NCBI GenBank assembly: GCA_949358305.1
Contig: OX442314.1
Location: 4,030,001 to 4,094,000 of the forward strand
Length of the DNA stretch: 64,000 nt
Direction of reading: 5' to 3'
Source of the DNA: Strigamia acuminata
Lineage: Eukaryota
Positions 14,962 to 37,970 of this stretch are shown piece after piece. The translations under genes and the position numbers were made by a program. The notes beneath the pieces are model-generated. The model saw nothing but the letters and a program-made list of their open reading frames with translations. It was not told the DNA's origin and searched no databases. Numbering within the stretch: the stretch's first letter is position 1; every line of letters begins with the position of its first letter.

Positions 14962-15000
14962 AGTATAAAACTCCCTGACAACAGGAAGTTAGTCAGTTCT
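14962..15000 (+). promoter_or_regulatory. Putative LTR core promoter (TATA box + Inr)
   Basis: TATAAAA followed ~30 nt later by TCAGTT; an equivalent TATA is present in the A and C LTRs. Confidence 0.55.
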
Positions 15001-15207: not shown

Positions 15208-15408
15208 AATCACGTGTGATACCAAAGTATTTAGTAACCGTTAGTAGCACTGTTACTGAAAGAGATTGACTCCATCACTTGATGGTGCCAAAGCAGTCTG
15301 CATGCAAAACATGCAGTTACCGCCAGTAGCACTATGTGTTTGGGAAAGTTATATCTCTTCGGTGATGGTGCCAAAGCAGTCTACTTATGAGTAGTATCTC
15401 AGGTGATT
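15208..15408 (+). ncRNA. Structured cis-acting RNA element in the LTR transcribed region (two-fold symmetric internal-loop hairpin)
   Basis: Two CAAAGCAGT / TWACCNYNAGTA internal loops with covarying stems relative to element C; copies at ~35598-35798 (+), 25205-25410 (-) and 32709-32914 (-). Confidence 0.65.
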
Positions 15409-16263
15409 AATTCTGTTGTGCAGAACTGCGGGCTATATCCCCCTGAATACCAGTGCCGTCTCTCACCGCACTGTTAGTTAGGGCACGCGCGATACTGTTC
15501 TGCTCAGCAAGGCGAACTTTGACGGCAATTGTGTGTTGCGATGTTTAACCTTTATTATATTTTGTAGTTGATAAATACACCTTAATTGTTTAAACTTGGC
15601 AACAAGTTAACAACCGAAGTAAGTCACGAGACTTATTTCACTGTATGACGAATCAAATTCGTAACAATAAATTGAATACAATTTATTGAGTTAATTTATT
15701 AAACTCACAACATCGCGAATTAAATATAATTCGCAAGCGGAACCTTGGCGAATAAATGACTTCATTTATTCATTACCAATTTCCAACCCTAGTTGTGGCG
15801 GTGCACATGAGTCAACCGCACCTCTCGGATCGAACCAAACAGCATTACACGGACCATTACACGATACGAACCAGGAACGTGAAGGAACCAGTTCCACGAT
15901 TACGAAGCGCCGACGGAAGCCGCGAGGACACAGCCAGCCCGGCTACGCGTAGATGACATCTTTTAACTCGGTCGAGCGGGCATTTTGCCGTTCCCGAACC
16001 CCGGATCACCAATAACCGTAATCATATTATTTTAGGGCTGTTTTACAGCCAATTTCATGTATAGTTTAACTTGTATTTAACTTGCCAAATGTCGGCATTA
16101 GAATTTGTATAACTTTTAGGATTGATTATATTGTTTAGTAACAATAAATGTCACGTTTTGAGAAACTCTGTTGTCTTTATTATCTCGTATTTTAATCACT
16201 TATTCACGCGACTTATACCCGGTACTATCATGCGATAGGAGTTGTGGTCGTCACCGTCACACG

Positions 16264-16281
16264 TGGAGGTTCCACCGAGAT
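16264..16281 (+). promoter_or_regulatory. Primer binding site complementary to the tRNA-Gln 3' end
   Basis: TGGAGGTTCCACCGAGAT is the reverse complement of ATCTCGGTGGAACCTCCA, the metazoan tRNA-Gln 3' end; 2 nt after the LTR. Confidence 0.88.
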
Positions 16282-17071
16282 AGGTTGCAAAGTTTAAATT
16301 TACCGAATTTAAATAAAAGTGAAAATTGAGATAAATAAAGAGTATAACATTTCAAAACATTTTATATGTCTCTGCTTTTGCGAAGTAGGGAATCCTCTTT
16401 AAGAACGTTGGGATTCGTGAGAACTCTAACATTAAAGGGAAAGTTTCGTTGTGTTGAAAAAACACTTAAAATCGAAGTAAAATTAATTTTAATTTTCACG
16501 AAACAAGGCTTGGTAAAATTCCAATGTTAGTTGAATATTTTCGTAAGAAATATCCAATCAGTAACGAGATTGACCAGGCCAAAGTGCGGACGTAGTAGAA
16601 AACTACTAAAATAAAGGATTAGTTTCCATTTTATCATTGGATAAAATAACTTTCCACCGATAAAGTGTCGAGGGATTAAAGGATTATCGATCCTCGATGC
16701 CACGCGGATCCAGACTACAGACGACCATTCGTATCCAGACCAGACCTGCAGACACGTGCTCCAGTAGCCATCTTGACCACGCCGTCCCGTTCAGTCCCGA
16801 TTCGAATTTTCCACGCCGTAAACCAGCTAAAGTTAAGTGTATTTCACCTATTATTTTAATAAATAATTTAAAGCGCCTTCTCACCCGACGCTAGTTTACT
16901 TGTAGTAGGATTCATTTGATTGTTTAAAATTTATCGATAGTTTAACACGTTTAACCACCACGTGGAGTTTAAGCTTAACCTTATCGAAGTGTATTGTTAT
17001 TTTGAAGTGTATTTTTTTTATATAAAGTGTGTTATCGTTCTTTAGTAATAAAGAATTTAAAAACTTTTATC

Positions 17072-18665
17072 ATGTCTGACGAAAACATTCATATGAATGA
17101 ACGAGAAGTTGATGACGGAAACTTGGAAAATAGTTACGTCCGACTCGAAGACCAAACGGATTTAATTCCGGACGATTTGACAGAGTATTGTCGACTCTAT
17201 AATCTAAATCGGGCTGATTTCAAAACAATAACCGAAGCGGTTAATCATGTACGCGTACTTGAGAAAAGAAATCAGAGAATTAGACCCGATGAAGATGAAA
17301 ATTCGGAGAACGAAAGTCGGCATTCGCGGACTTCACACCGAACCCCACGAAAAACGATTCCCACGAATCGTAAGCTGGACTTTCCCTCTCCTAAAAAGAG
17401 GTTGGGATATCAAGCCCGGATAGTGTCGACTCCACAGCTAAACGATAGAATGGTACGCGAACCATCGTTTAGCCGATCTCGTAGTCAACAAAGTTCTGGA
17501 CAAAGAACACCCAACTCTAATAGTCCTTTAAATCTAGCCAAACCAAGGTCTAGATCGACTAGTGTTAATCGAACGATTAACAATAGTAATTCGGGTTTTA
17601 TCCCCCAAACTTCGGGGAATAGACAAAATGTCTCCCAAAACTCTGAACAAATTAGTAATTCAGGATATGCCTGTTTTCGATGGAAAACAGAAGGACGTGG
17701 CTAAATTTTTAGCTACAGCCAAAACAGTCGCTGTCGCTAAAGGTTTGACTCTGGATGAGATGGTAAAACGCGGAATACCAACTTATTTATCTGGTATAGC
17801 CCACGAATGGCATACCGATAACCTCGACAAATTTGTTGACTGGAAAACTTTCGAAAAGATGTTTTTGGCGGAGTTTGACATGATTCCTGTCACTCGAGCC
17901 CGAAAGCTTCGAAATTTAATCCAGGGCCCAGAAGAGCCACTTTATACATTTCTTTTGAGATTTAAACAAGCTCAAGGATCTTATTCAAAAAGAGATGAAG
18001 CCCCCACTCTTCTCGAGAATTTGAATTTAGTTAGTTACAATCGAATAATCGATAGAGGTCTTTATGAAGAATCATTTAATGACATATTTCAATTTGTCCG
18101 GCAGAATAGGGCTCTTTTCGAAGCCCAAAATGCTAGTGTAGACACTATTGCCAATAAAGAGGACGAAACTGCCCCGTCAAATACTCAAAAAGGTAAAGAC
18201 GCCAGGAGTTCGCGCCCACTCATACGATCTACTCAGACGTTGAACGCCGAACCAGAAGTTGTACCTATGGAATCTGACGAGACAGACAATCTTGAAAACG
18301 ATGTTGGATTCAACAACATGGTATGTGCCCTATCGGAGAAAGCAACTGGAAAATGCTTCCATTGCAATCAACCAGGACACTTTAAGAGGGAATGTCCTTT
18401 GTTACAAAAAAGAAAATTTGTTCAGGACAAGCCCCAAGGTACTGGTAATAATACCAATACCAATCCCGCCTCTGATCTTTTTAAACGACAGAGACAAAAT
18501 TGGGTGACCGCTGAATCTTTGGACCAAAAGCTTGAAGACTTCAAAACTACTATGCAAACTAGTATGACAAAATCCATGTCGGACTTATTCACTAAATTTT
18601 TGGATCCAAAAAATGCGACCACTCCGCCTTTGGCGATTGAAGGTCCACCGACTCCAAAAAACTAG
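17072..18665 (+). CDS. gag: Gag of element B, split into two frames (17072-17704 and 17562/17628-18665)
   Basis: Capsid-like PVFDG...W..F...F and CCHC knuckle CFHCNQPGHFKREC; the two parts are one ORF in element A. Confidence 0.85.
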
Positions 18666-18690
18666 TAGAGGGGGTTACCGAAAACCCCCT
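18656..18690 (+). promoter_or_regulatory. -1 programmed ribosomal frameshift signal (gag-pol)
   Basis: A AAA AAC heptamer, 6-nt spacer, stem AGGGGGTT/AACCCCCT; the -1 frame is open into the pol ORF. Confidence 0.85.
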
Positions 18691-21600
18691 AAAAAACCAG
18701 AGTAATACATTATCCTCAGAAATAGAAAATGTTCTAAACGAAACTCTGAACAAATTAGTAATTCAAGATGAGGAAATTAAACGACCTAATCGTAAAACTA
18801 GGAAAAGGAATCCAAAGTATGTATTTAAGGAACCTTATCCCAACACTCCTTTTTCGATGGAAGAGACTGAAAATCCATTTACATCATTCGATGACGACCT
18901 CTTTCCTGCGGATAAGGGGGACGAATCTTGGCGAGAGTCCTTGAATGCAATAATTGAAAGCGCTGTAAATCCTCCTGTTCGAGAGGAAACCACTAGTTCT
19001 AGTGGAGGAGTATGCGAAAGTTTGGAGGCAATGATGGAAAATTTAGATATCTCCTCGAAATTATCTAGACATCATAGACTTCGTAAATATGTCAAAGAAC
19101 ATCAGCTCAAGAGAGCTGAAGTAGTTGAACGCATCAAACGTTTAGGAAACAGTAGCGACGACCCCCGAATGAAAATAACAATAGGTGGACTCACCTATAA
19201 TGCTTTAATGGATTCAGGAGCCACCCAATGTTTTATTGGATTACAATTACTTGACAGTACTTGTGCCTCCCCTGACTTCATTCAAGATTGCCCCCGAAAT
19301 ATGAAAGTGTGTGCCGTCGGCATAACTCATATCCCGCTAGGACAAATAACCCTTTGTGTTCAATGGGCAGATGGAGTAGAATTCACTCCAATGAATTTCA
19401 TCATTTTAGACCGAAATGTGTGTGGCCTAATTTTAGGGCACAATTTTATGCGTCGTACAACAATTAATTTAAATCCAGCACGAGCTGTATTTGACTGTGA
19501 CAACAAACCTGGTTGGACTGCGCCTTACGTGGATAACGAATTTAATGACAGTCTAGCGAGGTTACGCACACTAAGAGACGACGGAACAGTCACTCATACA
19601 CCCGACAATTGGGAAGAATTGTTGGTGAAAGATTGTGATTGTTCCGACGAGGATAAGACCAAATTACTAGAAGTAATTTCTGGAATCAAGCACGTCTTTC
19701 GGGACAAAGTTGGTTGTACGAACCTTGCCAAACATAAAATTACGTTTAAAAAGGACGCGAAATGGAAAAAACAACCGTTTCGCATGTACAATCCAGCAAA
19801 AATTGCGATTATGACCAAACTAGTTGAAGAGCTAGAAGCAGAGAATCTCATTGAGAAATCTACGGGGCCTTACATAAGTCATCCCGTAATAGTTGCCAAA
19901 CCAAATGGCACATATAGGTTATGTATTGATTTCCGATGGTTAAATGCGATCACCGAAATCAATGCAATCCAAATGCCCAGTATTGATTTGCTCATGCACA
20001 ATACTAATCAGGCAAAATACTTCACCTCACTTGACCTTACAAAAGGATATTATCAAGTAGAGATGGAAGAAGAAGATAAGCAGAAAACTGCTTTCTATAC
20101 TCCGAAAGGCAACTATCAATTTGTACGTATGCCATTTGGGTTATGTAACGCGCCTTGTACATTTCAAGCCCTAATGGAACAAGTTATGGGTGACGCGTTA
20201 TATAAACACGCATTAGTCTATTTAGACGATGTAATTATCTTTTCTCAGACTTGGGATCAACATCTCGGTCACATTAAAGATGTATTAGAACGACTAGACA
20301 AAGCAAACTTATCCGTAAATAAAGAAAAGTCTAAGTTCGGCAGAACTACGCTAAAATTTCTGGGACACTTAATCACTCCGAATGGATTAGCCCCGGATCC
20401 TGATAAAATAGCGTCAGTACGAAAATTTCCCACCCCAAAAACATCGAAAGATGTACAAAGGTTTCACGGGTTGGCAAATTTCTTTAGGAAGTTTATTCCT
20501 AACCACGGTGAAATTGCTACTCCACTGACTAGCATAATGCACGAGAAAGCAACCTTTGTCTGGGGACAAGAGCAAATAGACGCTTTCGAAAGAATTAAAG
20601 ACATTTTATGCGACGAAACTCAAGTTTTGTTAATGCCTAACATGCTCGAACCCTTTGTGATTCTAACAGACGCTTCACATTCAGGATTAGGAGCGGTATT
20701 ATGCCAAGATGTGGATTTTCTTGACAAAAACAAGGACAAATGGATTAAAACTCCAAGACCCGTAGCCTACGCTAGTCGCGTACTTCGAGGAGCCGAGCAA
20801 CGTTACACTACTCCCGAATTAGAGTGTCTGGCGGTAGTATGGGCTGTAGAACGTTTCCGCCCTTACATAGAATACACGTCTTTCACCCTGGAGTCAGATG
20901 CAGAAGCCTTAAAATGGCTAATGGGAACGCCAGAACCTTCTGGTCGTTTTGGCCGATGGGCAATTAAACTGCAATGTGGCGCCTTTAAGATTAAGTATCG
21001 CCGTGGTACTCAAAATCAAGTCGCAGACGCATTTTCAAGAGCTCCTTTGAGTATTGAAGACATTCCGAAGGATGATTACATCGAACCCACAGAAATAACT
21101 CAATTCTGGCCCGAATGGGACGGAAATAAAGAAGTTACTCGTAGAGAAGAACCAAAACCCTGTCAGTTCTTAACAAACGTGTCAGTAAAGTTTGATTATT
21201 CCAAAAAATTAAATAATTCTTTGGAAAAGGGGGAGAAAGGTCATGTAGAACCAGAAACTTTATTTAGTGCTTTAACCGAAGTACTAAGTATAGTTCCTCC
21301 TACCAGAGCAGAAATCATCGAAGCTCAGCTCAAAGACTATGAATGTAGAAAAATAATAACTCACCTAAAATTAGATGAAGTTGAGCAAAGAAGGAATAAG
21401 AAAACTAAGCGATGGATGAAAGACATCAAAGGCTACCAACTAGATTTCAAAGAAAATCATGATAATGAAGATGAGAATAGTAATGACTCTGAAATGTTAA
21501 TCTTCTTCAAACCAACATTTGAAGAAGAATTAAATGATTCCGGCAACGGATTTAAAGCGGTGATTCCACCTTCGTTAGTACGACGAGTGTTGTTCGCATG

Positions 21601-23023
21601 CCACGGACATCCGTTAAGTGGACACGCGGGGATGAGTAAAACGCTCGAACGAGCGAAACTCATCTATTATTGGCCTAAAATGAGCAAAGACACGTGCAAT
21701 TATGTTCGTAGTTGTGTTCATTGCCAACAATACAAACCTAGTCAACACCGCAAAAACAGAGCGAGTTATACTCCTCACAATATGGCACAGCCATGGGAAG
21801 TTCTTTGTTTAGACTTCATGGGTCCCAAACCCGCTGGTCAATACCAACATAAATATATTTTAGTAGGAATCGATCAATGTACTAAATGGGTAGAATTAGC
21901 TCCATTAAGCAAAGCTTCAAGTGAAGCAATTATAACAAAGTTAGGTGATATCGTACATAGATGGGGATACCCCAGGAAAATTATCAGTGATAATGGAAAA
22001 CAGTTCGCATCAACCATCTATGAGGGTTTCTGCAAAAGGCATAACATTAAAATGACGCATATAAGTCCTTATCATGCTCAGGCCAACCCCACAGAACGGG
22101 CAAACAGGGATATCAAAATAATGCTTGCAATTTATTCTGATGTGCACTCTCACTGGCCACGTTTTCTGAATGAATTTGCATTTGCATCCAGAACGGCAAA
22201 ATCCGAAGCAACCGGATCGACGCCATTTTTATTAAATACGGGAAGAATAGTAACACTACCTTTCGACCCGCGAATTATTCAACACGCGAATAAATTCGAT
22301 AAAAATAACCCTGAGGAATTCGTGTTTAATTTACTCGGGATTTTACGAAGAGCACACCAAGAGATGCACCGTAGGATCCAACTAAATTACGAGAAACACG
22401 ACAGAATTCACCGTAATAAATTTCATATTTGCAAATATGAAGTAGGTGATTTAGTCTGGAAAAATACACATATTCTTTCCAATCAAGACAAAGGCATTAC
22501 TAAAGGATTTGCTGAAAAACGAGACGGACCGTGGGAAATCACGGCCGTATTAACAGGAGGTGCATACGCCTTACGAAAATTATTAGATGACTCAATTGAA
22601 CCATCGATAAATACGGATGATCTCACCCCGTATATCCCTTCATACCCGATTGAGACATGGACTCTGGGTCAGAAAAAAGGAAAACTGAAAGATCATCCAA
22701 ACCCTGATTGGATGTCGGCAAATTCCGAATTTAACGAATCTAATTCACAAGAATTAGATAATCAAGATATGGAAGAAACCTCTCGTGAAAATCTTGAAAA
22801 AGATATGGAAGAACTTCCTCAAGAAAGTCTTGAACAAGAAGAAAGAATAATTCCTACCTCAAATGAAAATGGAAACGAGATTATCGATCCACGAAGTAAT
22901 AACTCAAATAAACGGAAGCGAACAGCTGACCTTCCGGAGATAATCTCGAGACCGAAAAGAACTTCGAAGCCAAATCCGAAATATACTACGGATTTTGTGC
23001 AGATGATTCAAGAACGTCGTTAA
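18662..23023 (+). CDS. pol: Pol polyprotein (aspartic protease, RT, RNase H, integrase), intact
   Basis: LMDSGAT, LCIDFR/MPFGL/YLDD, TDAS...ELECLAV, HHCC, LDF...SDNG...E, GPW; first ATG at 18857. Confidence 0.97.
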   Translation, partial: LVEGVTENPLKNQSNTLSSEIENVLNETLNKLVIQDEEIKRPNRKTRKRNPKYVFKEPYPNTPFSMEETENPFTSFDDDLFPADKGDESWRESLNAIIESAVNPPVREETTSSSGGVCESLEAMMENLDISSKLSRHHRLRKYVKEHQLKRAEVVERIKRLGNSSDDPRMKITIGGLTYNALMDSGATQCFIGLQLLDSTCASPDFIQDCPRNMKVCAVGITHIPLGQITLCVQWADGVEFTPMNFIILDRNVCGLILGHNFMRRTTINLNPARAVFDCDNKPGWTAPYVDNEFNDSLARLRTLRDDGTVTHTPDNWEELLVKDCDCSDEDKTKLLEVISGIKHVFRDKVGCTNLAKHKITFKKDAKWKKQPFRMYNPAKIAIMTKLVEELEAENLIEKSTGPYISHPVIVAKPNGTYRLCIDFRWLNAITEINAIQMPSIDLLMHNTNQAKYFTSLDLTKGYYQVEMEEEDKQKTAFYTPKGNYQFVRMPFGLCNAPCTFQALMEQVMGDALYKHALVYLDDVIIFSQTWDQHLGHIKDVLERLDKANLSVNKEKSKFGRTTLKFLGHLITPNGLAPDPDKIASVRKFPTPKTSKDVQRFHGLANFFRKFIPNHGEIATPLTSIMHEKATFVWGQEQIDAFERIKDILCDETQVLLMPNMLEPFVILTDASHSGLGAVLCQDVDFLDKNKDKWIKTPRPVAYASRVLRGAEQRYTTPELECLAVVWAVERFRPYIEYTSFTLESDAEALKWLMGTPEPSGRFGRWAIKLQCGAFKIKYRRGTQNQVADAFSRAPLSIEDIPKDDYIEPTEITQFWPEWDGNKEVTRREEPKPCQFLTNVSVKFDYSKKLNNSLEKGEKGHVEPETLFSALTEVLSIVPPTRAEIIEAQLKDYECRKIITHLKLDEVEQRRNKKTKRWMKDIKGYQLDFKENHDNEDENSNDSEMLIFFKPTFEEELNDSGNGFKAVIPPSLVRRVLFACHGHPLSGHAGMSKTLERAKLIYYWPKMSKDTCNYVRSCVHCQQYKPSQHRKNRASYTPHNMAQPWEVLCLDFMGPKPAGQYQHKYILVGIDQCTKWVELAPLSKASSEAIITKLGDIVHRWGYPRKIISDNGKQFASTIYEGFCKRHNIKMTHISPYHAQANPTERANRDIKIMLAIYSDVHSHWPRFLNEFAFASRTAKSEATGSTPFLLNTGRIVTLPFDPRIIQHANKFDKNNPEEFVFNLLGILRRAHQEMHRRIQLNYEKHDRIHRNKFHICKYEVGDLVWKNTHILSNQDKGITKGFAEKRDGPWEITAVLTGGAYALRKLLDDSIEPSINTDDLTPYIPSYPIETWTLGQKKGKLKDHPNPDWMSANSEFNESNSQELDNQDMEETSRENLEKDMEELPQESLEQEERIIPTSNENGNEIIDPRSNNSNKRKRTADLPEIISRPKRTSKPNPKYTTDFVQMIQERR

Positions 23024-23610
23024 AAGATTCTAAATATAAAAAGAATATTCTAAAAGATATTGATTTAAATCAGATATTGAATATTCAAATCGAAAATTCG
23101 CGAAGTCACCTGGTAACTTATGACCCCGGGTGGAGAGTAAAAGATTCGTTCTATATTCAGTCTTCTAACACACACGTGAGAGAAGAAGAACTTCGTCGAA
23201 TTCAACAAAAATCACGAACAATTGCGTCGATATTGTTAGCCATTAAACAAAGAATACAGGTATGATGATTATACATATGAATTAATATATATATCATGAC
23301 ATCTCTTTATATTTAAAGAAATACAAACCAGCGGAATTCGTTTATTAGCGGCGGAGGATTTGAAAGCCACGTGCTCTAAACTCCAAGTTATCGTCGAAGC
23401 GACTATACTTAGAATTCTACAAGCTACGCTTCTAAAGGAAGCAGGACATTTTCGTAAGTTCGATAAAATTATCAATACACGAAAGTGTAAAGTTGTAACG
23501 AATTATAATTATAAAATTCGTAAATTGAGTTACGCGTCTTCTCAATAGAGGGCGCGCGCATACAAAAGTATTGCAAATAAAACTAAAACGTTTTCTATAT
23601 TTGTAGAATT

Positions 23611-26600
23611 ATGGTCAAGAAGATACCAATTAAAAAGCGGCGAATTGTGATTCAGTCGAGCTCTTCGGAGGAAGACGATACACCCACGGTCAACCCGACC
23701 ATCGTAACAATCCCGGGAGCGCCAAATACTCCTATTGTGCTCGACCAAAAAGGATGGGACATATTAACATGGGCCCGAAACAACCCAGAGGCTCTCCCAA
23801 AGGAAATTCGTCCAAAAACGGCTGTACCCAAAACGGCGATGGAGGTTACCCAAGAAACCTTCATTATACCAAAAAAGGACAGTTTCTCCAAAAGCCATCC
23901 TTTACAGCCGGTCCATAAACCAAGTACGAGTCGAATGAACGATTCATCGACCTCTCATGAGAGAAGTCTGGACGAGATTGTCCAATTAGAGGCGAATCGA
24001 AATCCCGAAGGAAATCGCCACCAAGACAGCAAACGCAAACAGCGAGAATACGTTCATTACGACTCGCCGCCACCCACGACTTCGCGCGAAGTAGTGTATA
24101 CCCCTAGATATAATACGGCTAGAGGAAAACGTACGTTTGTGTCCACGAGAGCCCCCAAACTACAGCCGATGACTGTTCAACAAAGAGCAGCTAATAAGCA
24201 AGAAAAGGCACTGCGTCGAAAAGCCGCTTGCGATCGTGACTTAGAATTGGGAATTCCACACGACAATTTGGAGCTCGCGAAGGGCGAAATACCGTGCCCC
24301 TTCTGTTTCGGGGTTGGTTGGATGTCCGGCTCCGGGACAGGGTGCCATTTAGCATCATGCGGGAATTGTCTCGGATCAAAACGACGATTAAAAATCCAAC
24401 CCTGGAACCTGTGACGGTGACGACCACAACTCCCATTTAACAATGGTACCGGGAAGAGATCGCAATAAATAAACAGTGAATACAATACGAGATAAATACA
24501 AGACAGTTTATTGTTGGCAAACAATATGGATGAGCTAAATTATACATAGGACTAATGCCGACATTTGGCAAGTTAAATCAGCTATTAAACTATACAAAGA
24601 ATTGGCCAACTGGCCCTAGAATAATATCACTACGGGTCTGGAATATGGGAGCGGTTTCCCCATCGCTCGACCTGATTATAGATGTCATCTTAAGCCGGAT
24701 GGCTGTGTCCTGGAGTCCGATACGGCTTCGCTGGTTTCCTTGGTTCGCTGTGTGAACTATCGCACGTCGATAAATCGAATGATCTGAGCATTGCGGTTGA
24801 CTTTGTCTGCACCGCCACAACTTTGGGAGGATATTGGTGTAAGTAAATGTATTCATTTACTTATCAATATTCCACTTATGAATTATATTTAATTCATATC
24901 GTTGTGAATTCTTATTTAGATATTTCGGGAATAAGTTGTCGTCAACTTATCGGTTATATTGAGTTCAATATGAGATTAAGTCTTCTGACTTGATTTTGGT
25001 CCAACTGGTTGTCGAGTTTAAGTTTTGCTGTTATAAATAAAATGAAGATTAAGCTTCCCGTCGCAACACACAATTGCCATCGATTAGAATATACGCCTTG
25101 CCATGCAGAACGGTATCAAGCGTCCCCGGCGTCGCAGCACGGTCGTCCATCGAGTGGTTGACGGTACCACGTACACAGGGGTCGATAGCTCGCGGCTCCG
25201 CACAGCAGTTTTATCTCTCGCGGTACTAATAATAGACCGACTGCTTTGGCATCGAATACCATGAGAATCAGCTTGCCAAACACTTGGTGCTACTCGTGGT
25301 TACTGTAAAACAGACTGCTTTGGCACCATCAGGTGAAGGAACCGATTCTCAACAATACCGATGCTACTCGTGGTAACGGAATACGTTCATACCGAAAAAG
25401 ACAACTTGGTCCTGTCCGGAGGATACTGAATTGCACAACGGCGGGTTCTCCTTCGGCGTCGCAACCGTAGACTGTAACATTTATGCAACATAATAATCCC
25501 AGCACTTCGACTTCAATTGCCGGCGGTGGCATGATTCTGTAGAATCATGCAACGGTTCTTTGCGAATAAATCAACAAAGAACCAAAAGGTTTTTTACGTG
25601 AACAACGAATCATATTTCATAAGTAACAATACCAAACAGAAAATAATCAAACAGAGCTGCAGAATGGCCGGTTGTTTGGGTTTATATAACCTGACTGGAT
25701 TAAGGATTAATCCAGTTATCCAATTGGAACATGGGTTCCACGAATCCCTCCAATCCCGTATCACCGGAAGTGGATACGGAGGAACAATGTGCTAATTCTC
25801 ACCACAACCGGAACTGGATACCCAGGACCGGAAATGGATCCACCAATCAGATCTATTGGTTGATCGATTGATCACCAAATGTCCTGTCCCGCAGAAAATG
25901 GAAGTTACATTGTATTTAACATCACAAGACATTAATATATCTTTATATTAATGTTCACAAAGCTTCGTTTCATTCTAGTAAATATAGTTTTATATTTATT
26001 TACATGTTTTATATTCATATCTTGAATTTGCCGCTAAATCGTAATCGCGCCATCTTGTGGCAACATTGCGCATTGACAAATGCGGTTTTAGCAGACGACT
26101 CTTCGTGATTCGGCCGGAATCCTTTGATATCAAGTAGGAATGAGTGTTTATTCTTAATAAACGAACATCTTTGTATTTGAAACATCATAAATAACTTTAT
26201 TCCAGACATTTATCAGTTTTACACAGAATATCTTCGAGATATCATGATAATGGCGCAACAGCGCTTCTTTCTAAGAAAATAGGCATTTATAGCCATTGTA
26301 AACCGTCACACATCCCCCTTAATAACACAATTATATAAAATTTTATAGAGTTTTCGTTATTCTCCTAATTAGCATAAATGCTATTTTCGGACTTGATGTA
26401 TCTTGGAGATACCGTGACTTCCAATTTCGAATTTGAGCTTACATAAACTAACTTGAATTATCTAAGTTCTGATTTTCTGCCGAAATAATCTTTTCTAATA
26501 GCCTAAATTCAAGTCCAGAATTTATTTCCAAGTCTTCTTTTTGAAGAAACTTTCGTCATACATAAAATCATCATTTGTGTTATCACAAAATATTTATTTC

Positions 26601-29600
26601 ATATGCCTAGTCAGATGTATCGCTATAAATATACAATAAATAGCTTTTAGATGATAAGAGTTGACAATTAAGAAATCATAATTGTCCCCCTTAATTGTCA
26701 TGACCGGAGTCACTTGGTATTCTTTGTACAATTGACTAATTTAATTAAACTAGTTGTCTTAATAATGTAGCATTACTTTTCAAAATTTTGTTAATTCTAA
26801 CTTTTATATTTTGTCCCCCTTTTCTTTAGAAGAGAGGTCATGATTTTTAGAAGAGGATTTTCTGTTTACACTATAATCGGGGAATCTTTGTGTATCATAT
26901 CATGTTAATCAACATGATTCTTTGCTAAATATTGAGCTCGCATATTTGCAAATTTCCGAGATCTCTCAGCCTGCTGTACTGATTTTTTTTCGACGTTTTT
27001 TCTTTGGGCAGTTACACACAGTGTACTCACTTGGCAGTGTAAATGACCGTGACGACCCAACTTTTTGTTTTAGGTCATCTCTGGAAAACCATACATGAAT
27101 GGGACCCTCATTGGAAAACCATACGTGGAAAGGACCCATATTTGGAATTGTGAAATCCCGCAACAAACGAGGGGATCTATATTTGACTCTAAGTCGTGGA
27201 ACTGATGATTGGAAACCTGGGTTTTCAGTCAGTTTTTGAACATGTTGGTTTGTACTTGAAGTTTCTTCATCACCAGCTGGACTTGGTGACCGAAAACGCT
27301 TTTTTGAAGTTCTTAATTCCTCTCGTTGAGATGAATTATTCTGGATATTGCAGGGTTGCTTTCCAGACGCAAATTGTTGTATCTCCGTCAGATTGACGAC
27401 TGGGACGGGTTTTAGTCGTTGGTTACGGTATTGATTTCGAAATACGAATTGTTGCGCTTCGTTTATATTTTTAAATTCAGCTGAATTTAACTGGTATTGT
27501 TTACAATACTGTTCGAATTGATACCGGATCTCCCGTGGGTTAGTCAAAAAACTTTCTTTTTTAGGTTTAAAATCATTCTCATTATCGTGTTGGTAATACT
27601 TTTTCAAGGGAAAAGTTTGCTTGACCTTTTTTCGATTTGAAATGGGCGTTAGGTAGAATTGTCTTGGCTGGGGACTCTTCTTGGTAGACAAATCATACGT
27701 CCGCAAACATGAGTTTGTGATCGGCGATCGGGCACGTTGTTGTACGTTATTTGACTGCAAATGTTTGTTTGGAGTCCGAATATCTTTCCTTTGCGTTGAT
27801 ATTGGTGGCCCAAAACTTTTGTTTACGGTTCCCAATTCTTTTGATAGCGGTAGGTTAATCGACAGATTAAGGCTAGCCACATATCGTTGTGCTTCAGCTG
27901 GATTAGCATATCGAACTGAAATTAGCTGATCTCGATTGTAAACGAGTTTTAATTTGTTCTGAACAACCGACTGGTTAGTTAACGAACTCTCTGGACGAGA
28001 ATTATTAGGTTTATAATTCTCTTCCCCCTTATCTACCGAATTAGGTGGTTTAAACTTTTCTAACTTAGATCCCCTACTGGATGTTTGAAACATAGTATGA
28101 GAATCTTGATTCACTAAGTTTCGGCTGTATGTTTGTGGATTCCGTACTGGATCTTGATGTGAAGATTGAGATTGGGTACGGTCTCGCCAGTTCCTAGCTT
28201 TTACATAGTCTGAAGCTTCGATTATATTTTTAAACTTGGTTTTATCCAGTCCATGACGATTACAATACAGAGTAAAATGATCGGGAATCTTTTCTGTTTG
28301 ATCGCCAAGTGGTACAGAACTTAAATTTAAGTTTGTCTGCTTATTATTTCCTTTTGGATCGATCATATTCAATGGTTTTTGAGCCATAAAAAAATTCAAA
28401 ATCTGACGATTTTAATTCTTTAATTTATAAAGAAGACGAATATAATACACTTTTCAACAAGAAACACTTCTAAACTTTACTTTTGACAAAATAAAATTAA
28501 ACTTCGCGTTTGTTTGACACGTGTTAGCTTTTGCAGGTTACACGGCACACAAAATTCGAATCGTGACTGAAATCGGGACGGCGTGGTCAAGATGACTCTG
28601 GAACACGTCTTCTGGTCTGGTCTGGATGCGAATGATCAGTATCTGATCTGGTCCTCCTTTAATAGCAGGGGGCTGGGGATCCCTAGATCTCCCAACTTCT
28701 GATTGGCGGATGTTAGTGTCGGCCAATGGTATAAAGGACGTTACATCTATTTAGTAGTTCTCTACTAAGTCCGTTCCCTTCGAGATTCAATTTTACCGAT
28801 AAAATAAAATTCCTTCGGGAAGACATTCGTAAAATATTGTATTTTTCAAATGAAAATAAAATAAACTTACTTCAATCTTCTTGAACTTTGGGATTTTTAC
28901 CAATCCAAATAATTAAATAACTTTTCTTCAAAAAATATTTTTCTTTGATTATTCCGTTTAGTGTGTAATATCATTACAACCACAGTTTTAATAAAGTTTT
29001 CTCAAACTCTCAATTTTTCTTATTCTTATTCAATTATCGTTCAAATAATCATTCCTTTGTAATTGAAATCTATTTTCGATTCCCAACATTGTGTATTCAT
29101 TTCCAATAGGAAGAATAATTTGACCAAGTCTTTACTTTTTCGGGTTTAAATTCCATTTTTCGAGTGTGAAAAAAATAAATTTTCACCATCCATCTCCCCC
29201 TTTTTTAACAAATTTTTTTAACAAATAAAAATTCGTTAAAATTCTTTAAATTTGTTTTGCGAGAAAAATTATCTAATTCTCTAATCTTCCAAAAGAAAAT
29301 ATTCGAAATTTTACTTTAAACGATAAAGTTATTGGTACAAATGTGTACTTGTTTTTCGGGAGAAAACTATTCGACAATCCTTTAGACTTTTGGGTAAAAA
29401 TTATTCATCAAATCTTTCTTTTTTGATGACAATTGCTTTGATTTTTCGAAAGAAAATATCTAGCTAAATTCCACTTTTCCTGAGCGGACAATTGTTTTCA
29501 CAATTAGTTATTCCTTTGCGATATTTACGAAGGACGTGTCTTTGATTATTCGTTTTAATAATTTTCGTCCCCCTTATCTCTAATAACGAGATGTTTTTGC

Positions 29601-32600
29601 AGAGATCTTTTATCTTTTGAATGAAAGAATATTTAAATCTCAATTGTCGTAAATACCTTCATCTGCTGCAGCATTTCCTCAATTTGAACTTTTCAAATGA
29701 AAAGACAAATCTGGAGAACTTTCACTGTCAAACTTCTATTCCTATCGCGCCAAAATTCGTAATTCACTGGTTTGGAATTCCGTATAACACGTGACACAAT
29801 AACAGTATCGATGTCACAATTAAGCAGTTTACTACTCGGTCCGCGCGAGGACATGTAAATTACTTTTTTCCGATAAAAATAATTTTTCTTTGAAAAATAT
29901 TTGAAATTGATTTTTCACAACTACTTTTGAATGAAATAAAATGAAGTTATTCCAACTTTTCGTTAATTGCTCACACATAACATTCCCTTTACTGTGGGAT
30001 TTGCATCGAAATTCCATTTTTAAAGAACCTTTCTTTTACTTATCGCAAATAAAACATATTCAATCGTTTTTCTGATTAAACTTTAACACGTAAATTACGA
30101 ACGAAATATATGATGACATTCCATTAACCTTTAGGAAAATTGACTAAATTCTTAATTTTTAGAGAAAAATAATGTATCTAGAATCTTTCCTTTTCCGAAT
30201 AAAATCTATGTTCAAAATAGAAGATAAATCTTGTGCAATTCTTAGTTTTTTCGAATGGAAAAATACAACTTTTCATCAGCGGTGATTTATTTGATTTTTC
30301 CGAAAGAAAAATAATTACTTTGAAACTTATTTTCTTCGTTTAAATCAGCTATCTGATTTTAAAGCTTCAATCCAATTAAAAAATATTCGCTCCGTAAATA
30401 TTTCATGTGGCAAAGTTCATAGCCACAAATGGATTTGTTATTCCGGTTTTAAGAAATCATGTGGGAAAATGTCCGATTAGATTACTAAAAATATTCGTTG
30501 TTTTTCAAACAGCTAAATTTCATTTAGAAATTCTCAAAATTTGGGAGACCCAAATATCGTTGGAAACTTAAAACACTGTTAAATTTCCGAAAGGAAAGAT
30601 TGAATGAAATCCTTTTACTTTTCCGAGGGAAAGCGTTTATCGTGATTCGTAACTTTCAATGTAAAAAATACTATTCTACGTGGTCGGCAACTTCATTCGC
30701 CGCCATTTTATATTTTCTTAATTTCCATTGTCCCGAAGGAAAAAATGTACTTTTTGTGAAAATAGTTAATTCCTTCAAATAAAGGTAATATTCATTTCGA
30801 TTTGCAAATCTTTTCTGCGAAATGGAGTGTGTTGTTTTTCTCCAACAACTAAATTATCTTTGGTACCGATGGCAGTGGAAAAATTAGTTCGCGACACTTA
30901 AATAAATCTCTACGAACCTTCTGTAACATTTCTCCGCTGTCTTTTATCTGTTGTCCGCCATAATTTCCAAGCATTCGTTCGCACCTTGCGTTGAAGGTTT
31001 GAGTAGCTTCCCTGCTGCGTTTGATACGGAGATCGACGCGTATTGCTATGGCGCGTGGTCGCTGGCTATCGGTGTCGACGTACAGTTACAAGAAACTTAA
31101 TTTCTTGTAAATATTTCCAAATAGTTGCGGTGTTTTCTTCGTTTTAACTTTTCAGGTGGAAAGATAAATTCGTAAGAAGTCCGCCTTCTAAACTTGTATG
31201 TTTTTAGCTTTTCGAAATAAAACAAACTTCGAAAAAAATATCTGTATTCTTATTTCACTCGAAACTTTTTTTTGATTTCTTATTTAAAATACTTCGTATT
31301 CCTTAAATTGTCGAACGAAAATAGTAAAGAGAGTTCACTAAACGTTTCCATTTCGTCAGTTTAACTTTTCACATGAAAATATAAACTGAAAATCTATTTG
31401 TCTGTTTTAACTAAAATTTTTTTGTTAATATCGGATTCAAGATTCGCTTTTGCAATTCGATCGAATTAATTTGCAACCTATTTCAGTGATCGTGTGATAG
31501 GTCTATAACTTCCGAAATTCCTAGTTAAAGGACTGTTTTGGTGTTTCTCAAGAAAATAAACATGGTTTGAAACTTGTCTGTTTTTTAACTAAATCTTTTA
31601 GTTAAATATTTATCTCAAAATTCACTTTTACAATTCTATCGAATTTAATTGCAACCTAATCTCGGTGGGACCTCCACGTGTGAGATTAGGTGGTAGTCTT
31701 TGAAATCCCTAAAATCTTCAAACGAAAATAATGAAGGAAAATCTACTACGTATTTCTATTTCATCAGTTTAACTTCTTCACATGGAAATATAAACTGAAA
31801 ATTTAATCTGTCTATTTTTAACTTAAATCTTTTAGTTAAATATTTATCTCCAATATTCACTGTTGCAATTCAATCGAATTTAATTGCAACCTAATCTCGG
31901 TGGGACCTCCACGTGTGACGGTGACGACCACAACTCCCATTTAACAATGGTACCGGGAAGAGATCGCAATAAATAAACAGTGAATACAATACGAGATAAA
32001 TACAAGACAGTTTATTGTTGGCAAACAATATGGATGAGCTAAATTATACATAGGACTAATGCCGACATTTGGCAAGTTAAATCAGCTATTAAACTATACA
32101 AAGAATTGGCCAACTGGCCCTAGAATAATATCACTACGGGTCTGGAATATGGGAGCGGTTTCCCCATCGCTCGACCTGATTATAGATGTCATCTTAAGCC
32201 GGATGGCTGTGTCCTGGAGTCCGATACGGCTTCGCTGGTTTCCTTGGTTCGCTGTGTGAACTATCGCACGTCGATAAATCGAATGATCTGAGCATTGCGG
32301 TTGACTTTGTCTGCACCGCCACAACTTTGGGAGGATATTGGTGTAAGTAAATGTATTCATTTACTTATCAATATTCCACTTATGAATTATATTTAATTCA
32401 TATCGTTGTGAATTCTTATTTAGATATTTCGGGAATAAGTTGTCGTCAACTTATCGGTTATATTGAGTTCAATATGAGATTAAGTCTTCTGACTTGATTT
32501 TGGTCCAACTGGTTGTCGAGTTTAAGTTTTGCTGTTATAAATAAAATGAAGATTAAGCTTCCCGTCGCAACACACAATTGCCATCGATTAGAATATACGC

Positions 32601-34630
32601 CTTGCCATGCAGAACGGTATCAAGCGTCCCCGGCGTCGCAGCACGGTCGTCCATCGAGTGGTTGACGGTACCACGTACACAGGGGTCGATAGCTCGCGGC
32701 TCCGCACAGCAGTTTTATCTCTCGCGGTACTAATAATAGACCGACTGCTTTGGCATCGAATACCATGAGAATCAGCTTGCCAAACACTTGGTGCTACTCG
32801 TGGTTACTGTAAAACAGACTGCTTTGGCACCATCAGGTGAAGGAACCGATTCTCAACAATACCGATGCTACTCGTGGTAACGGAATACGTTCATACCGAA
32901 AAAGACAACTTGGTCCTGTCCGGAGGATACTGAATTGCACAACGGCGGGTTCTCCTTCGGCGTCGCAACCGTAGACTGTAACATTTATGCAACATAATAA
33001 TCCCAGCACTTCGACTTCAATTGCCGGCGGTGGCATGATTCTGTAGAATCATGCAACGGTTCTTTGCGAATAAATCAACAAAGAACCAAAAGGTTTTTTA
33101 CGTGAACAACGAATCATATTTCATAAGTAACAATACCAAACAGAAAATAATCAAACAGAGCTGCAGAATGGCCGGTTGTTTGGGTTTATATAACCTGACT
33201 GGATTAAGGATTAATCCAGTTATCCAATTGGAACATGGGTTCCACGAATCCCTCCAATCCCGTATCACCGGAAGTGGATACGGAGGAACAATGTGCTAAT
33301 TCTCACCACAACCGGAACTGGATACCCAGGACCGGAAATGGATCCACCAATCAGATCTATTGGTTGATCGATTGATCACCAAATGTCCTGTCCCGCAGAA
33401 AATGGAAGTTACATTGTATTTAACATCACAAGACATTAATATATCTTTATATTAATGTTCACAAAGCTTCGTTTCATTCTAGTAAATATAGTTTTATATT
33501 TATTTACATGTTTTATATTCATATCTTGAATTTGCCGCTAAATCGTAATCGCGCCATCTTGTGGCAACATTGCGCATTGACAAATGCGGTTTTAGCAGAC
33601 GACTCTTCGTGATTCGGCCGGAATCCTTTGATATCAAGTAGGAATGAGTGTTTATTCTTAATAAACGAACATCTTTGTATTTGAAACATCATAAATAACT
33701 TTATTCCAGACATTTATCAGTTTTACACAGAATATCTTCGAGATATCATGATAATGGCGCAACAGCGCTTCTTTCTAAGAAAATAGGCATTTATAGCCAT
33801 TGTAAACCGTCACAAACCCCAAGTTTGTTTCATTCGTGGTTAAAGGGTTGTTCGATCCAGTACCCCGAAAATGGGCAACCTGCCACCTTTGTAAAGCTTT
33901 ACTATCTAACGATGGCAAAGCTGTATACGAGGATCCCGAATTTATGAATTCGCGAAGAACGCCCCTTGGCCTTCAAATGGGTTTGGAAAAAATGCCAAGT
34001 GTTGTCTGCGTAGATAATGCGACTCAAACGGACGAAGCCGCATTAGTCCCCATGCCAAACGTTGTGGAACACGGAATTTCGAACGAGTTCTTAATTGAAC
34101 CTTACCAAGTTCCTCCGAACACCAAGATAGGACAGTTATTTGTTTGGGAGGTTGAATACTACTACCCCATCGTGGCTCGACTTGCAATTATCATTTCTCG
34201 TCAATTGGTTACGGGCCTACCCGATCAAATAACAGTAGGGTATGTGACCAGGATCATGCAAATGATCTTGAATCCACGTCGCGTTGAGGGCTTCAACATT
34301 TTGGAGCACCTTTGGAATTTGCTCGTGGGAAAAATCGCAGCTGAGATGAAAAATCAAATATGCGAAGGCTGGATTTTGGTTTTGCCCCCGGTGATTGACA
34401 TCTACGAAAATCTCAAGAAAATGATCGATGAAGAAGACGGATCGACTGATCAGCCTGAAGCAGGGGATAAAGCACCCGAGACTCCCATCGCCACGGAAGT
34501 TGTTGCGACCGCTGCATTCTTCATAGATCGGCAACCGGAAGAACCTCTTCCCGCCAAGAAACGTGGCAAAAGCTCCTCTTCGAAGGATAGGCAAAAGCCC
34601 GCCACGGAGACCGAAAAAGGTCAAGAATAA
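23611..34630 (+). CDS. ORF3 of element B (536 aa when rejoined: 23611-24409 + 33819-34630), Cys-rich putative nuclear protein, interrupted by element C
   Basis: Removing C and one AACC TSD restores the frame (...KIQPWN-PKFVSFVVKG...); CPFCFGVG, CGNCLGSK and CHLC motifs; basic KKRR and KKRG clusters. Confidence 0.8.
24410..26310 (-). repeat. 3' LTR of element C
   Basis: Direct repeat of 31914-33814. Confidence 0.95.
26966..28387 (-). CDS. Element C protein (~473 aa): two copies of the Gag N-terminal module in basic low-complexity sequence, no capsid
   Basis: IPDHFTLYCNRHGLDKTKFKNIIEASDYV and FEQYCKQYQLNSAEFKNINEAQQFV both match B IPDDLTEYCRLYNLNRADFKTITEAVNHV; C-terminal PKKKRRKK. Confidence 0.75.
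   Translation of the reverse strand: MAQKPLNMIDPKGNNKQTNLNLSSVPLGDQTEKIPDHFTLYCNRHGLDKTKFKNIIEASDYVKARNWRDRTQSQSSHQDPVRNPQTYSRNLVNQDSHTMFQTSSRGSKLEKFKPPNSVDKGEENYKPNNSRPESSLTNQSVVQNKLKLVYNRDQLISVRYANPAEAQRYVASLNLSINLPLSKELGTVNKSFGPPISTQRKDIRTPNKHLQSNNVQQRARSPITNSCLRTYDLSTKKSPQPRQFYLTPISNRKKVKQTFPLKKYYQHDNENDFKPKKESFLTNPREIRYQFEQYCKQYQLNSAEFKNINEAQQFVFRNQYRNQRLKPVPVVNLTEIQQFASGKQPCNIQNNSSQREELRTSKKRFRSPSPAGDEETSSTNQHVQKLTENPGFQSSVPRLRVKYRSPRLLRDFTIPNMGPFHVWFSNEGPIHVWFSRDDLKQKVGSSRSFTLPSEYTVCNCPKKKRRKKISTAG
31914..33814 (-). repeat. 5' LTR of element C
   Basis: Followed on - by CG and the PBS. Confidence 0.95.
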
Positions 34631-34994
34631 GCGGTATTTCGAATTTAAACAATTAGCAGTTTGTTTGTGTGTTCTGTGATAAAAAGATATAATATGTAAC
34701 CGGAAAATTCTTTAATTAAGATTTTTGTAAGAAGTGCTTTTTCCGTTATACGAAAATGACTTCATGTTTATTGTTTTAATAATAACCAAATTATTTTTAT
34801 AACCGTCTCTAAAAAGAGAAAATAAAAACATTTTTGAGCATCCTAAGGATAAGAACATGTTTATTAAAAACACTCGTGGGCCTTATAAGTATTGGAAATA
34901 AAATATTTATTAATATGGATAAATTTGGCACAAATGATATTCCTAAAGAATAACATAAAATATAAGAGTATATGTTTAGTTATTAAGGGGGATG

Positions 34995-36648
34995 TGTGAC
35001 AAATTAGCAATAGATGGCGCCACTAGTACTAGCGGCAAATTCAACCTCGAGCTTACTATTTCCCATATAAATAGTTCACAAACATATTATTATGTTTGAT
35101 ACGACCAAATGTGATTCACATCGATAATATAAAGGTATATTATCAATACTTAAGAAGATAAAAATAGGCGTTACTGCTTTATCACCGATACATGACGAGG
35201 AACACGGTTTTGAATGTATTTCCGTTCTGTGTATCCATTTCCTGTCCCCGGTATCCAGTTCCGGTTTATGCTAAAAGATTAACATAATCCCAATTTGCAT
35301 CTCCGTATCCACTTCCTGCGATACGAGATTGGTGGAACCTAATCCCACCGAGTATAAAACTCCCTGACAACAGGAAGTTAAGTTAGTTCTTGATTTCTGG
35401 TTATTTGGTATGTTCCGCATGTCAAATAACTGTTTCTTACTCAGGGCATGGGCCTACCGGTCCATGCATAGCATGGCTCTGCTGAGCCATGCAACCCCCG
35501 TCAACTGAAGGCGAAGTTCGGACTGTTAATGTTTCCGTCAAACGGTCTTGCCGAGGAGAAAGCCTCCCGCATAAGTATCCTCGTGGTCGGACAATAGAAT
35601 CACGTGTGATACCAAAGTATTTAGTAACCGTTAGTAGCACTGTTACTGAAAGAGATTGACTCCATCACTTGATGGTGCCAAAGCAGTCTGCATGCAAAAC
35701 ATGCAGTTACCGCCAGTAGCACTATGTGTTTGGGAAAGTTATATCTCTTCAGTGATGGTGCCAAAGCAGTCTACTTATGAGTAGTATCTCAGGTGATTAA
35801 TTCTGTTGTGCAGAACTGCGGGCTATATCCCCCTGAATACCAGTGCCGTCTCTCACCGCACTGTTAGTTAGGGCACGCGCGATACTGTTCTGCTCAGCAA
35901 GGCGAACTTTGACGGCAATTGTGTGTTGCGATGTTTAACCTTTATATTTTGTAGTTGATAAATACACCTTAATTGTTTAAACTTGGCAACAAGTTAACAA
36001 CCGAAGTAAGTCACGAGACTTATTTCACTGTATGACGAATCAAATTCGTAACAATAAATTGAATACAATTTATTGAGTTAATTTATTAAACTCACAACAT
36101 CGCGAATTAAATATAATTCGCAAGCGGAACCTTGGCGAATAAATGACTTCATTTATTCATTACCAATTTCCAACCCTAGTTGTGGCGGTGCACATGAGTC
36201 AACCGCACCTCTCGGATCGAACCAAACAGCATTACACGGACCATTACACGATACGAACCAGGAACGTGAAGGAACCAGTTCCACGATTACGAAGCGCCGA
36301 CGGAAGCCGCGAGGACACAGCCAGCCCGGCTACGCGTAGATGACATCTTTTAACTCGGTCGAGCGGGCATTTTGCCGTTCCCGAACCCCGGATCACCAAT
36401 AACCGTAATCATATTATTTTAGGGCTGTTTTACAGCCAATTTCATGTATAGTTTAACTTGTATTTAACTTGCCAAATGTCGGCATTAGAATTTGTATAAC
36501 TTTTAGGATTGATTATATTGTTTAGTAACAATAAATGTCACGTTTTGAGAAACTCTGTTGTCTTTATTATCTCGTATTTTAATCACTTATTCACGCGACT
36601 TATACCCGGTACTATCATGCGATAGGAGTTGTGGTCGTCACCGTCACA
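34995..36648 (+). repeat. 3' LTR of element B (1654 bp; U3 differs from the 5' LTR)
   Basis: Preceded by the PPT; followed by TSD AGGT. Confidence 0.93.
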
Positions 36649-37970
36649 AGGTTTGTTGTTGTTGTTGTGTTCGGGTGGTTTACCGTCAGTGGGGGGAAGG
36701 TCCCAGGGCGCGTTCAATTCCTTCATGATGGGCGTGAGGTGGAAACGGTGTTTATCCATCAGTCGGGTCAAATCAGTTTTGTGCGCCAGTCGGAATTTGT
36801 TTTGCACGTAAATCTGGACGTGTGATTTGTAAGATGCACTCACGGGTCTGTCGTTGTTTTGGAAATAGTTTTCCGGGTCTGGAAACATCTCCAGAAACTC
36901 CTCGACGCTGAAGTCGCTGAAATTCATTAAAAAATCATGGAAAAAAATTAGGAATAATTATTGAAAAATCAGAAAACATTGTAAAAAAAATATAATGAAA
37001 AATCTTAAACAATCATAAAGAATCATGAAAAATCTTGAAAATCATTAAAAATCTTGAAAATCATGAAAAATCTTGAAAATCATGAAAAATCTTGAAAATC
37101 ATGAAAAAAATCTTGAAAATCATGAAAAATCTTGAAAATCAAGAATAATCATAAAAATCATGATAATCAATCATGGAAAATCATAAAAAAATCTTAAAAA
37201 ATCATGGAAAAAACAATGAAAAATCTTCTTTTTTTTTTTTAAAAAAATCTTTTAAAAAAAATAATTAAAAACCTTAAAAAATCATTAAAAAGCATCAAAA
37301 TACTTGTAAAAACCCTAAAATCTATTTAAAACAAAAAAATAAAAAATAAAAACCTTTCCATAAATTTCCGTTTGGTTTCCGCCTTTTGAGCTTCGGCCAA
37401 CTTGGGATAACTCCCACTCTCCAACCACCCGGAAACCGACGCATTCACGAAATTCACATCGCCCGTATTTGTCTCAATAAAACTCCGCAAATATTCTGGA
37501 TCGGCATCCGGAAACACTTCCAAAATCGACTTCACCGTATCCATCGTAATCGTCTTCACCATGTCCATCGAAATCGACACATCGTTCTCCACTTCGCCCG
37601 AAGTCGACGCGATCGGTCCCGACCCATTAATCCCATTAATCACATCGGTCCGGACGTCGTTCGCCACCGGAAACGGCGCCGGCCCGTCCATTCCAAGCAA
37701 CTCGCCGATCACGACGCGCACTCGGTCCGGATTTTCATGAAACGCCTCCAAATACGCGAGGATCTCCTCCCGGCTCGTATTCGGAACGTATTTCTCCACC
37801 ACGTCCACATCCTTCACCAATTCGTCGTATTTGTCCACTTTCTGCTCACACAGGATCTTCAACGGCGCTTCTTCGGCTTTCTGTGGCTGTTTCGCGCTCA
37901 AACGATCGATCACGACGCTTGTGTTGGCATTTTCATTCTCACTGTCAATTTCAATCAACTCGTACACTTC

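Follow-up and report, generated by a model that had tools for sequence, protein, structure and literature searches.

INTRODUCTION

What occupies the env position of a gypsy-type retrotransposon when the gene found there does not look like Env? The question arises in a 64,000-nucleotide (nt) stretch of the Strigamia acuminata genome (assembly GCA_949358305.1, contig OX442314.1, positions 4,030,001 to 4,094,000, forward strand), which we call the window and whose own numbering we use throughout. On its plus strand, at 14379–36648, lies a long terminal repeat (LTR) retrotransposon, element B, with the marks of the Ty3/gypsy group: TG..CA ends, a primer-binding site (PBS), a polypurine tract, a 4-bp target duplication and a pol gene in the order protease, reverse transcriptase (RT), RNase H (RH), integrase (PR-RT-RH-INT). 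Between pol and the 3′ LTR it carries a third open reading frame (ORF), ORF3, broken by a second element, C. Third ORFs of gypsy elements are usually classed as env by position. The ORF3 of B, which is no Env, shows coding constraint and lacks any known relative; it enlarges the small set of accessory genes in animal retrotransposons.

An original prediction, made from the letters of the window alone, had proposed that ORF3 encodes a nuclear accessory factor (anti-silencing, Rev/Tat-like or chromatin-targeting), expressed from a spliced subgenomic mRNA and possibly the ligand of a symmetric RNA element in the LTR. That interpretation is partly supported: a constrained non-Env gene, a Cys cluster, basic ends, a plausible splice acceptor and an LTR stem-loop are all there, while the proposed DnaJ-like zinc finger is incomplete. 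ORF3 is very probably a real, functional gene; its reality as a gene and its non-Env nature are the two points that rest on tests in this analysis.

ORF3 AND ITS INTERRUPTION

Two stop-free frames, at 23587–24414 (ATG at 23611, 587 nt downstream of the end of pol) and 33806–34630, share one phase and together make 266 + 270 = 536 codons. Given the local base composition, the chance of such a run, per frame, is 2e-6 for the 5′ piece and 4e-7 for the 3′ piece. As had been predicted, the pieces, ~9.4 kb apart, rejoin in frame when the 9,405 bp of C and its 4-bp target duplication are taken out. The features concerned are:

23582–23606, plus strand: putative splice-acceptor region, with a branch-point candidate, a pyrimidine tract and an AG (last base 23606) placed 4 nt ahead of the ORF3 start codon
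23611–24409, plus strand: ORF3 5′ piece, 266 codons, with a basic N-terminus, an aliphatic then Ser/acidic run at residues 12–23, a polar low-complexity region and the first six candidate zinc ligands
24295–24369, plus strand: those six ligands (C229, C232, C245, H246, C250, C253), start of a predicted zinc module
24410–33814, minus strand: nested LTR element C, 9,405 bp, pol-less, with LTRs at 24410–26310 and 31914–33814; breaks ORF3
33815–34630, plus strand: ORF3 3′ piece, with the last Cys pair (33881–33892), a hydrophobic domain (~34124–34441), an acidic tail and a motif resembling a class-2 nuclear localization signal (NLS) at 34550–34570

Coding constraint was assessed on contigs of three public DNA runs (one organism, 2 studies), for which 40 of 486 differences and 12 of 43 indels were shown. 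Contigs in all three runs cover the ORF3 5′ piece, at a depth of the same order as that over pol (depth is not copy number). The 40 differences shown fall in pol (24), the spacer (8) and ORF3 (8). In the ORF3 5′ piece six of the eight are synonymous, against a fraction of 0.23–0.33 expected under neutrality (P 0.003–0.019); in pol the count is 22 of 24. Both replacement differences in ORF3 lie within its polar N-terminal region. No indel among the 12 shown is within ORF3, and six listed contig pieces, 7–18% diverged, align to ORF3 with 0 gaps (a count of gaps only), as compared with 9 gaps in a contig piece of similar divergence in the C LTR. The synonymous excess in the 5′ piece and the stop-free pieces in one phase bear out the claim of a real third gene held under coding constraint.

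ORF3 IS NOT AN ENV

The available text of a study of errantiviruses places the Env ectodomain between a signal peptide or transmembrane (TM) segment and a TM anchor (PMC13524379). ORF3 has neither an N-terminal signal peptide or TM segment nor a C-terminal anchor: its N-terminus is basic, and no membrane segment is seen by hydropathy, 19-residue windows reaching at most 0.81 (5′ piece) and 1.27 (3′ piece). With the two pieces searched separately, Pfam, PHROGs, NCBIfam, PDB and 1.84 billion representative proteins returned no homology to Env or any fusion glycoprotein. The original prediction had named beforehand a clear match to a known Env or host gene as grounds for giving it up; none was found in these databases. 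Its statement that ORF3 does not look like Env is thus confirmed by the basic N-terminus, the lack of a membrane segment and the lack of a family match, and the Env reading is largely refuted.

The search for relatives of any kind was also negative. Compared with longer proteins, the 3′ piece matched none of 2210 candidates, and residues 150–266 of the 5′ piece matched none of 18 at E 10. NCBIfam gave no match to any of five queries, and the ESM Atlas no usable match to either piece. Among PDB sequences there was none for the 3′ piece, and for the Cys region only chance-level rows of seryl-tRNA synthetase (E 0.69). The single phmmer match among the 1.84 billion representatives (P0123, E 1e-5) was rejected, its score consisting of six repeats of one 15/57 match. 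A scan of viral contigs with the integrase region found no relative. No ORF3 relative is present at 79 metagenome loci with a related RT (31–40% identity), 29 of which had at least 1.5 kb past the integrase. At these loci 14 of the 15 listed downstream ORFs were scanned, and none belonged to an Env or zinc-finger family except one gag ORF with a zinc knuckle. Two deoxynucleoside-kinase ORFs lie 2.3–4 kb past the integrase of a distant gypsy relative (L027:9158–10971).

Single-sequence AlphaFold2 models had low confidence (pLDDT 37 and 50), with one segment modelled as strand in one and helix in the other, and Foldseek run on these low-confidence models found no match at E 0.001. From the models, the region at ~34124–34441 of the 3′ piece is probably a helical domain.

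CYSTEINE CLUSTER AND BASIC ENDS

All the motifs quoted in the original prediction are present in the rejoined protein: KKIPIKKRR (residues 3–11), CPFCFGVG, CH, CGNCLGSK, CHLC and PAKKRGK. The insertion of C falls within the Cys cluster. Reading through the break with an X, the candidate ligands are C229, C232, C245, H246, C250, C253, C288 and C291, seven Cys and one His. The pattern had been likened to the CxxCxGxG repeats of DnaJ-type zinc fingers. Two such repeats exist, at residues 229–236 and 250–257, where a DnaJ finger has four, in two nested sites; Pfam gave no DnaJ_CXXCXGXG match for the Cys region, only a weak one to Anti-TRAP (E 0.16). With the further pairs C245/H246 and C288/C291, the eight ligands would suffice for two zinc ions, and we infer a two-zinc module of no assignable family. 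None of 20,000 shuffles reproduced the pair of CxxCxGx[GK] repeats, and none the order of the eight ligands, for patterns picked after the fact. The top matches, all weak, are to single-site zinc ribbons: Lar (E 0.0046), ZNF512_C2HC (0.021), zf-BED (0.065) and Anti-TRAP (0.16). PHROGs added a weak Q-like match to ORF3 (0.072).

Of the two basic ends, PAKKRGK at the C-terminus fits the class-2 NLS pattern, which shuffling yielded 48 times in 5000; at the N-terminus, K(K/R)x(K/R) is common by chance (2142 of 5000). Basic ends of this kind may direct nuclear import of the protein.

SIGNALS UPSTREAM OF ORF3

A pyrimidine tract and AG had been noted 4 nt before the ATG, and the AG, ending at 23606, makes a plausible acceptor. 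It is one of 3 among 195 YAG sites in 16300–24400 that pass a filter on pyrimidine tract, branch point and AG-free distance, a filter set after the site was seen. A donor-like GTAAGT stands at 15619 in the B LTR and is absent from C. By these signals, the ORF3 protein would be made from a spliced subgenomic mRNA through the acceptor at 23606.

THE LTR STEM-LOOP AND NESTED ELEMENT C

The LTR element to which the prediction pointed does exist. B and pol-less C both retain a stem-loop in which one motif occurs twice:

15231–15387, plus strand: stem-loop in the B 5′ LTR, carrying one motif pair twice; candidate cis element
35621–35777, plus strand: the same in the B 3′ LTR
32737–32884, minus strand: the same in C

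The B stem-loop (157 nt) folds with z -4.45, none of 200 shuffles being as stable; that of C gives z -1.95 in the sense and -4.2 in the antisense direction. The C LTR is ~65% like that of B in this stretch, with the motif copies nearly unchanged and a similar long stem folded. The stem-loop would be included in the element RNA at least via the 3′ LTR.

The LTRs of C, 1,901 bp each, have 0 mismatches, so that C is very young; its target duplication (4 bp) is at 24406–24409 and 33815–33818. Neither pol nor any trace of ORF3 was found in C. Any protein that binds its stem-loop must therefore be supplied in trans, either by B-like elements or by the host. The sole long ORF of C, at 26966–28411 (minus strand, 481 codons), is related to the N-terminal part of B gag; in it the N-terminal gag segment occurs twice and a capsid domain is absent. 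In the three runs the C LTR had several times the contig depth of ORF3, which suggests that C is an abundant satellite family.

A PROPOSED ROLE FOR ORF3

We consider it likely that ORF3 encodes a nuclear regulator of one kind or another; that this regulator acts on the RNA of its own element is possible, though short of probable. The closest analogue is CERV of the Caenorhabditis elegans element Cer1, which excerpts of its description give as a spliced, nuclear protein of 517 aa with a candidate NLS and a Cys finger, with no homologues outside nematodes and required for export of Cer1 genomic RNA (PMC10309623). Both are non-Env proteins of ~520–540 aa with a candidate NLS, a Cys-rich region resembling a zinc finger and no homologues beyond their own lineage, and both come from a spliced mRNA, shown for CERV and inferred for ORF3. 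CERV has N-terminal exons in common with gag, and H, M and G domains; ORF3, by contrast, starts with an ATG of its own just past the acceptor, lies entirely 3′ of pol and has eight candidate ligands. Among the systems compared here, CERV is the only non-membrane accessory protein with a tested function, as far as the portions of those papers at hand go.

Our tentative reading, to which we give somewhat less than an even chance, is that ORF3 encodes a CERV-like zinc protein which works in the nucleus to favour the export or accumulation of unspliced element RNA, possibly via the LTR stem-loop, and that C borrows it. The protein, with its predicted two-zinc module of seven Cys and one His, would recognise the two-fold stem-loop; it would help the unspliced RNA of B get made, exported or accumulated, as CERV does for Cer1; and B-like elements would supply it in trans to pol-less C, which keeps the stem-loop. 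If the protein does bind a stem-loop common to B and C, protein and stem-loop would form a compact protein–RNA pair for studying unspliced RNA export or silencing evasion, and would also inform how non-autonomous elements tap such help. A bolder form of this proposal is improbable: a new-fold two-zinc nuclear dimer that binds the two-fold stem-loop, exports or de-silences the RNA and is exploited by a plentiful pol-less satellite with the same stem-loop, making a circuit like Rex/RxRE outside retroviruses.

Several points weigh against the CERV-like reading and its genetic basis. The variants shown are few and were pre-filtered, one of the runs may come from the very sample behind the window, and the constraint figures cover the 5′ piece of ORF3 only. 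Among the contigs listed none spans the insertion point, so an uninterrupted ORF3 copy was not seen directly. The best LTR donor, that at 15619, leaves 14 ATGs in a 624-nt leader, given a start at the TATA/Inr-like site, which makes its use doubtful. The stem-loop is about equally stable on the opposite strand, and 19 of 70 consensus pairs are broken in C as against 8 changed on both sides (from two independent sequences); it could also serve Gag, packaging or a host factor. Patterns resembling a nuclear export signal occur in ORF3 at chance level, and an arginine-rich motif found no match in it. Insect errantiviruses splice env and are not known to have a Rev-like protein. Our searches tied ORF3 to none of CERV, Rev and Rex, by sequence or by fold; CERV was not compared pairwise in them. 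A TATA-like box at 23510 permits an internal promoter for ORF3, for which some Tor elements offer a precedent (PMC4402516, in excerpt).

ALTERNATIVE EXPLANATIONS

An anti-silencing factor. ORF3 might instead combine a divergent cross-brace (RING-like) module with a SUMO-binding-like N-terminal motif, and ubiquitinate or displace host silencers. The ligand order C-C-C-H-C-C-C-C is that of RING-HC (C3HC4) domains, and the first loop of 12 residues is within the 9–14 found in 99 of 108 viral RINGs. On the RING-HC and the DnaJ reading alike, C229, C232, C250 and C253 would form one zinc site, with a second predicted from the four other ligands. RING-HC domains, however, have 1–3 residues between ligands 3 and 4, where ORF3 has 0, the His standing straight after the third Cys. 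The second loop is 34 residues long, against 5–31 in the 108 viral domains; a His follows ligand 7 where 92 of 108 have the E2-binding Pro; and there is no Trp at the helix position. A profile of those 108 domains, itself biased by the motif used for collecting them, gives the X-read-through module -0.1 bits, a score equalled or beaten by 422 of 1000 shuffles with Cys and His kept in place, and Pfam found no RING. RING-HC membership is therefore rejected. At residues 12–23 three aliphatic residues precede a Ser/acidic run, an arrangement found in 0 of 5000 shuffles (the pattern being picked post hoc). This run resembles the phosphorylation-dependent SUMO-interacting motif (SIM) of PML. Residues 12–23 nevertheless miss the strict SIM pattern, whose matches elsewhere in ORF3 are at chance level. 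Taken with both sides, an anti-silencing factor is unlikely.

A factor acting on DNA or chromatin. The protein could bind DNA or chromatin as a transactivator of the LTR, or serve as an adaptor for integration site or chromatin; the duplicated LTR motif would then function at the DNA level. The NLS-like ends, acidic tail and zinc module suit such a role, as do the weak top matches, which are zinc ribbons of nucleic-acid-related proteins. Between B and C, moreover, the sequence of the duplicated motif is conserved, and either strand of it folds. Yet every match is under curated cut-offs, and the BED match is without its downstream His pair. Pairing of the arms is maintained between B and C despite sequence change, so that a structured strand fits better than a plain double-stranded site. 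We give this explanation a low probability.

A passenger. That ORF3 is a captured piece of a host or foreign gene, or works in the cytoplasm in some non-regulatory capacity, such as in the particle, is decidedly unlikely. A separate origin is hinted at by GC content at third codon positions, 0.48 in both ORF3 pieces against 0.34–0.36 in pol and the capsid frame of gag, though the N-terminal gag frame is also at 0.48. The synonymous excess and the gap-free diverged copies argue against a neutral passenger, and no donor gene was found in the database searches. Capture from the neighbouring host gene, an RBR-type E3 ligase described below, was rejected: its RING1 does not match, scoring -0.9 bits, a value reached by 460 of 1000 shuffles.

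A diverged Env. Although its location between pol and the 3′ LTR, probable splice acceptor and length all recall env, as do a single RxKR site and two sequons for N-glycosylation, a highly diverged Env or other membrane fusogen is extremely improbable in view of the basic N-terminus, the absence of a signal peptide, a best hydropathy window of 1.27 and the lack of any Env or fusion family in Pfam, PHROGs, NCBIfam or PDB.

RELATION TO KNOWN SYSTEMS

Non-Env third ORFs are already known from rotifers and plants, and nuclear accessory ORFs from MDG1-group elements and Cer1; the type of protein encoded by ORF3 is, by the excerpts of the literature covered, not previously described. Rex/RxRE of HTLV-1 and Rec/RcRE of HERV-K reportedly pair a spliced nuclear regulator with a long LTR stem-loop, as proposed here for ORF3; Rex and Rec are said to be small arginine-rich proteins of true retroviruses, unlike ORF3. 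Rec is named Rev-like in the available part of PMC13269885, and neither that part nor the corresponding one of PMC6338049 holds anything closer to ORF3.

The LTR retrotransposons of bdelloid rotifers are likewise retrovirus-like elements of animals with a family-specific non-Env third ORF at the env position. Their ORF3s are, in the portions consulted, recognisable enzymes (GDSL esterase, DEDDy exonuclease) or TM proteins, whereas ORF3 of B has no catalytic or TM signature (PMC5408684). The sORF1 and sORF2 of the Drosophila MDG1 group are accessory ORFs of Env-less gypsy-type elements too, and sORF1 is nuclear; unlike ORF3 they are short (~110 and ~70 aa), unspliced and upstream of gag, and sORF2 is a membrane protein (bioRxiv 10.1101/2025.03.14.642691, in part). 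Plant LTR retrotransposons, for example Grande with its GENE23, have orphan third ORFs between pol and the 3′ LTR, some nuclear and proposed to be regulatory. Those that are nuclear run antisense and have a promoter of their own, in contrast to the sense ORF3 of B (PMC7264820). In the literature covered, which excluded subscription journals, Repbase and supplements, the passages at hand describe no animal gypsy ORF3 with this Cys pattern and no RING- or SIM-bearing one.

ELEMENT B

The remaining parts of B are:

14379–16261, plus strand: 5′ LTR, 1,883 bp; target duplication of 4 bp at 14375–14378 and 36649–36652
16263–16282, plus strand: PBS, with a near-same sequence in elements A and C
17073–18665, plus strand: gag, in two overlapping frames, 17073–17704 and 17538–18665, the second with Retrotrans_gag and zf-CCHC domains
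18641–23023, plus strand: pol, a single frame of 1,460 codons, PR-RT-RH-INT in the Ty3/gypsy order
34978–36648, plus strand: polypurine tract and 3′ LTR, the LTR at 34995–36648 (1,654 bp)

We take the PBS to be tRNA-Gln-like. The gag/pol overlap holds a run resembling a slippery site, and a hairpin. The top PDB match of pol is Ty3 Gag-Pol (E 2e-110). The RT-RH region is at most 45–46% identical to any database protein, and in an RT tree (quick method, 45 rows, 76 of 120 hits left out) B sits on a long isolated branch with no clade assignable; its lineage is hence barely sampled.

The first 464 bp of the 5′ LTR (14379–14842) and the first 236 bp of the 3′ LTR (34995–35230) are wholly unlike save for the terminal 11 bp, the remainder being 98.5% alike. 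The 5′ segment of the 5′ LTR is ~70% like the LTR of C, and the mismatch therefore suggests a recombinant or template-switched copy. By what we take to be the CTCF consensus, a CTCF-like motif lies in the 5′ portion of each B LTR, at 14610 and 35011, although the 5′ segments differ, and at position 251 of the C LTR; it is possibly an insulator. A ~28-nt stretch coding for TLNKLVIQD is present twice in B, early in the capsid frame (~17640) and near the start of pol (~18740). An Rfam scan of the window gave no match.

FLANKING GENES AND ELEMENT A

On the minus strand, window positions 4260–5477 and 36649–61200 hold a tandem array of ~4-kb units of an RBR-type E3 ligase gene, presumably RNF216-like, with five copies that bear RING1. 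In the array proteins IBR scores above the Pfam cut-off and CUE is weak. A second young pol-less LTR element, A, lies at 5479–14125 (minus strand), with identical LTRs of 1.55 kb and a PBS of the same kind. The stem-loop motif of B and C is absent from its LTR. Its ORF of 449 codons joins the N-terminal and capsid parts of gag in one frame. Elements A and B both sit in the first RBR copy, ~250 bp apart.

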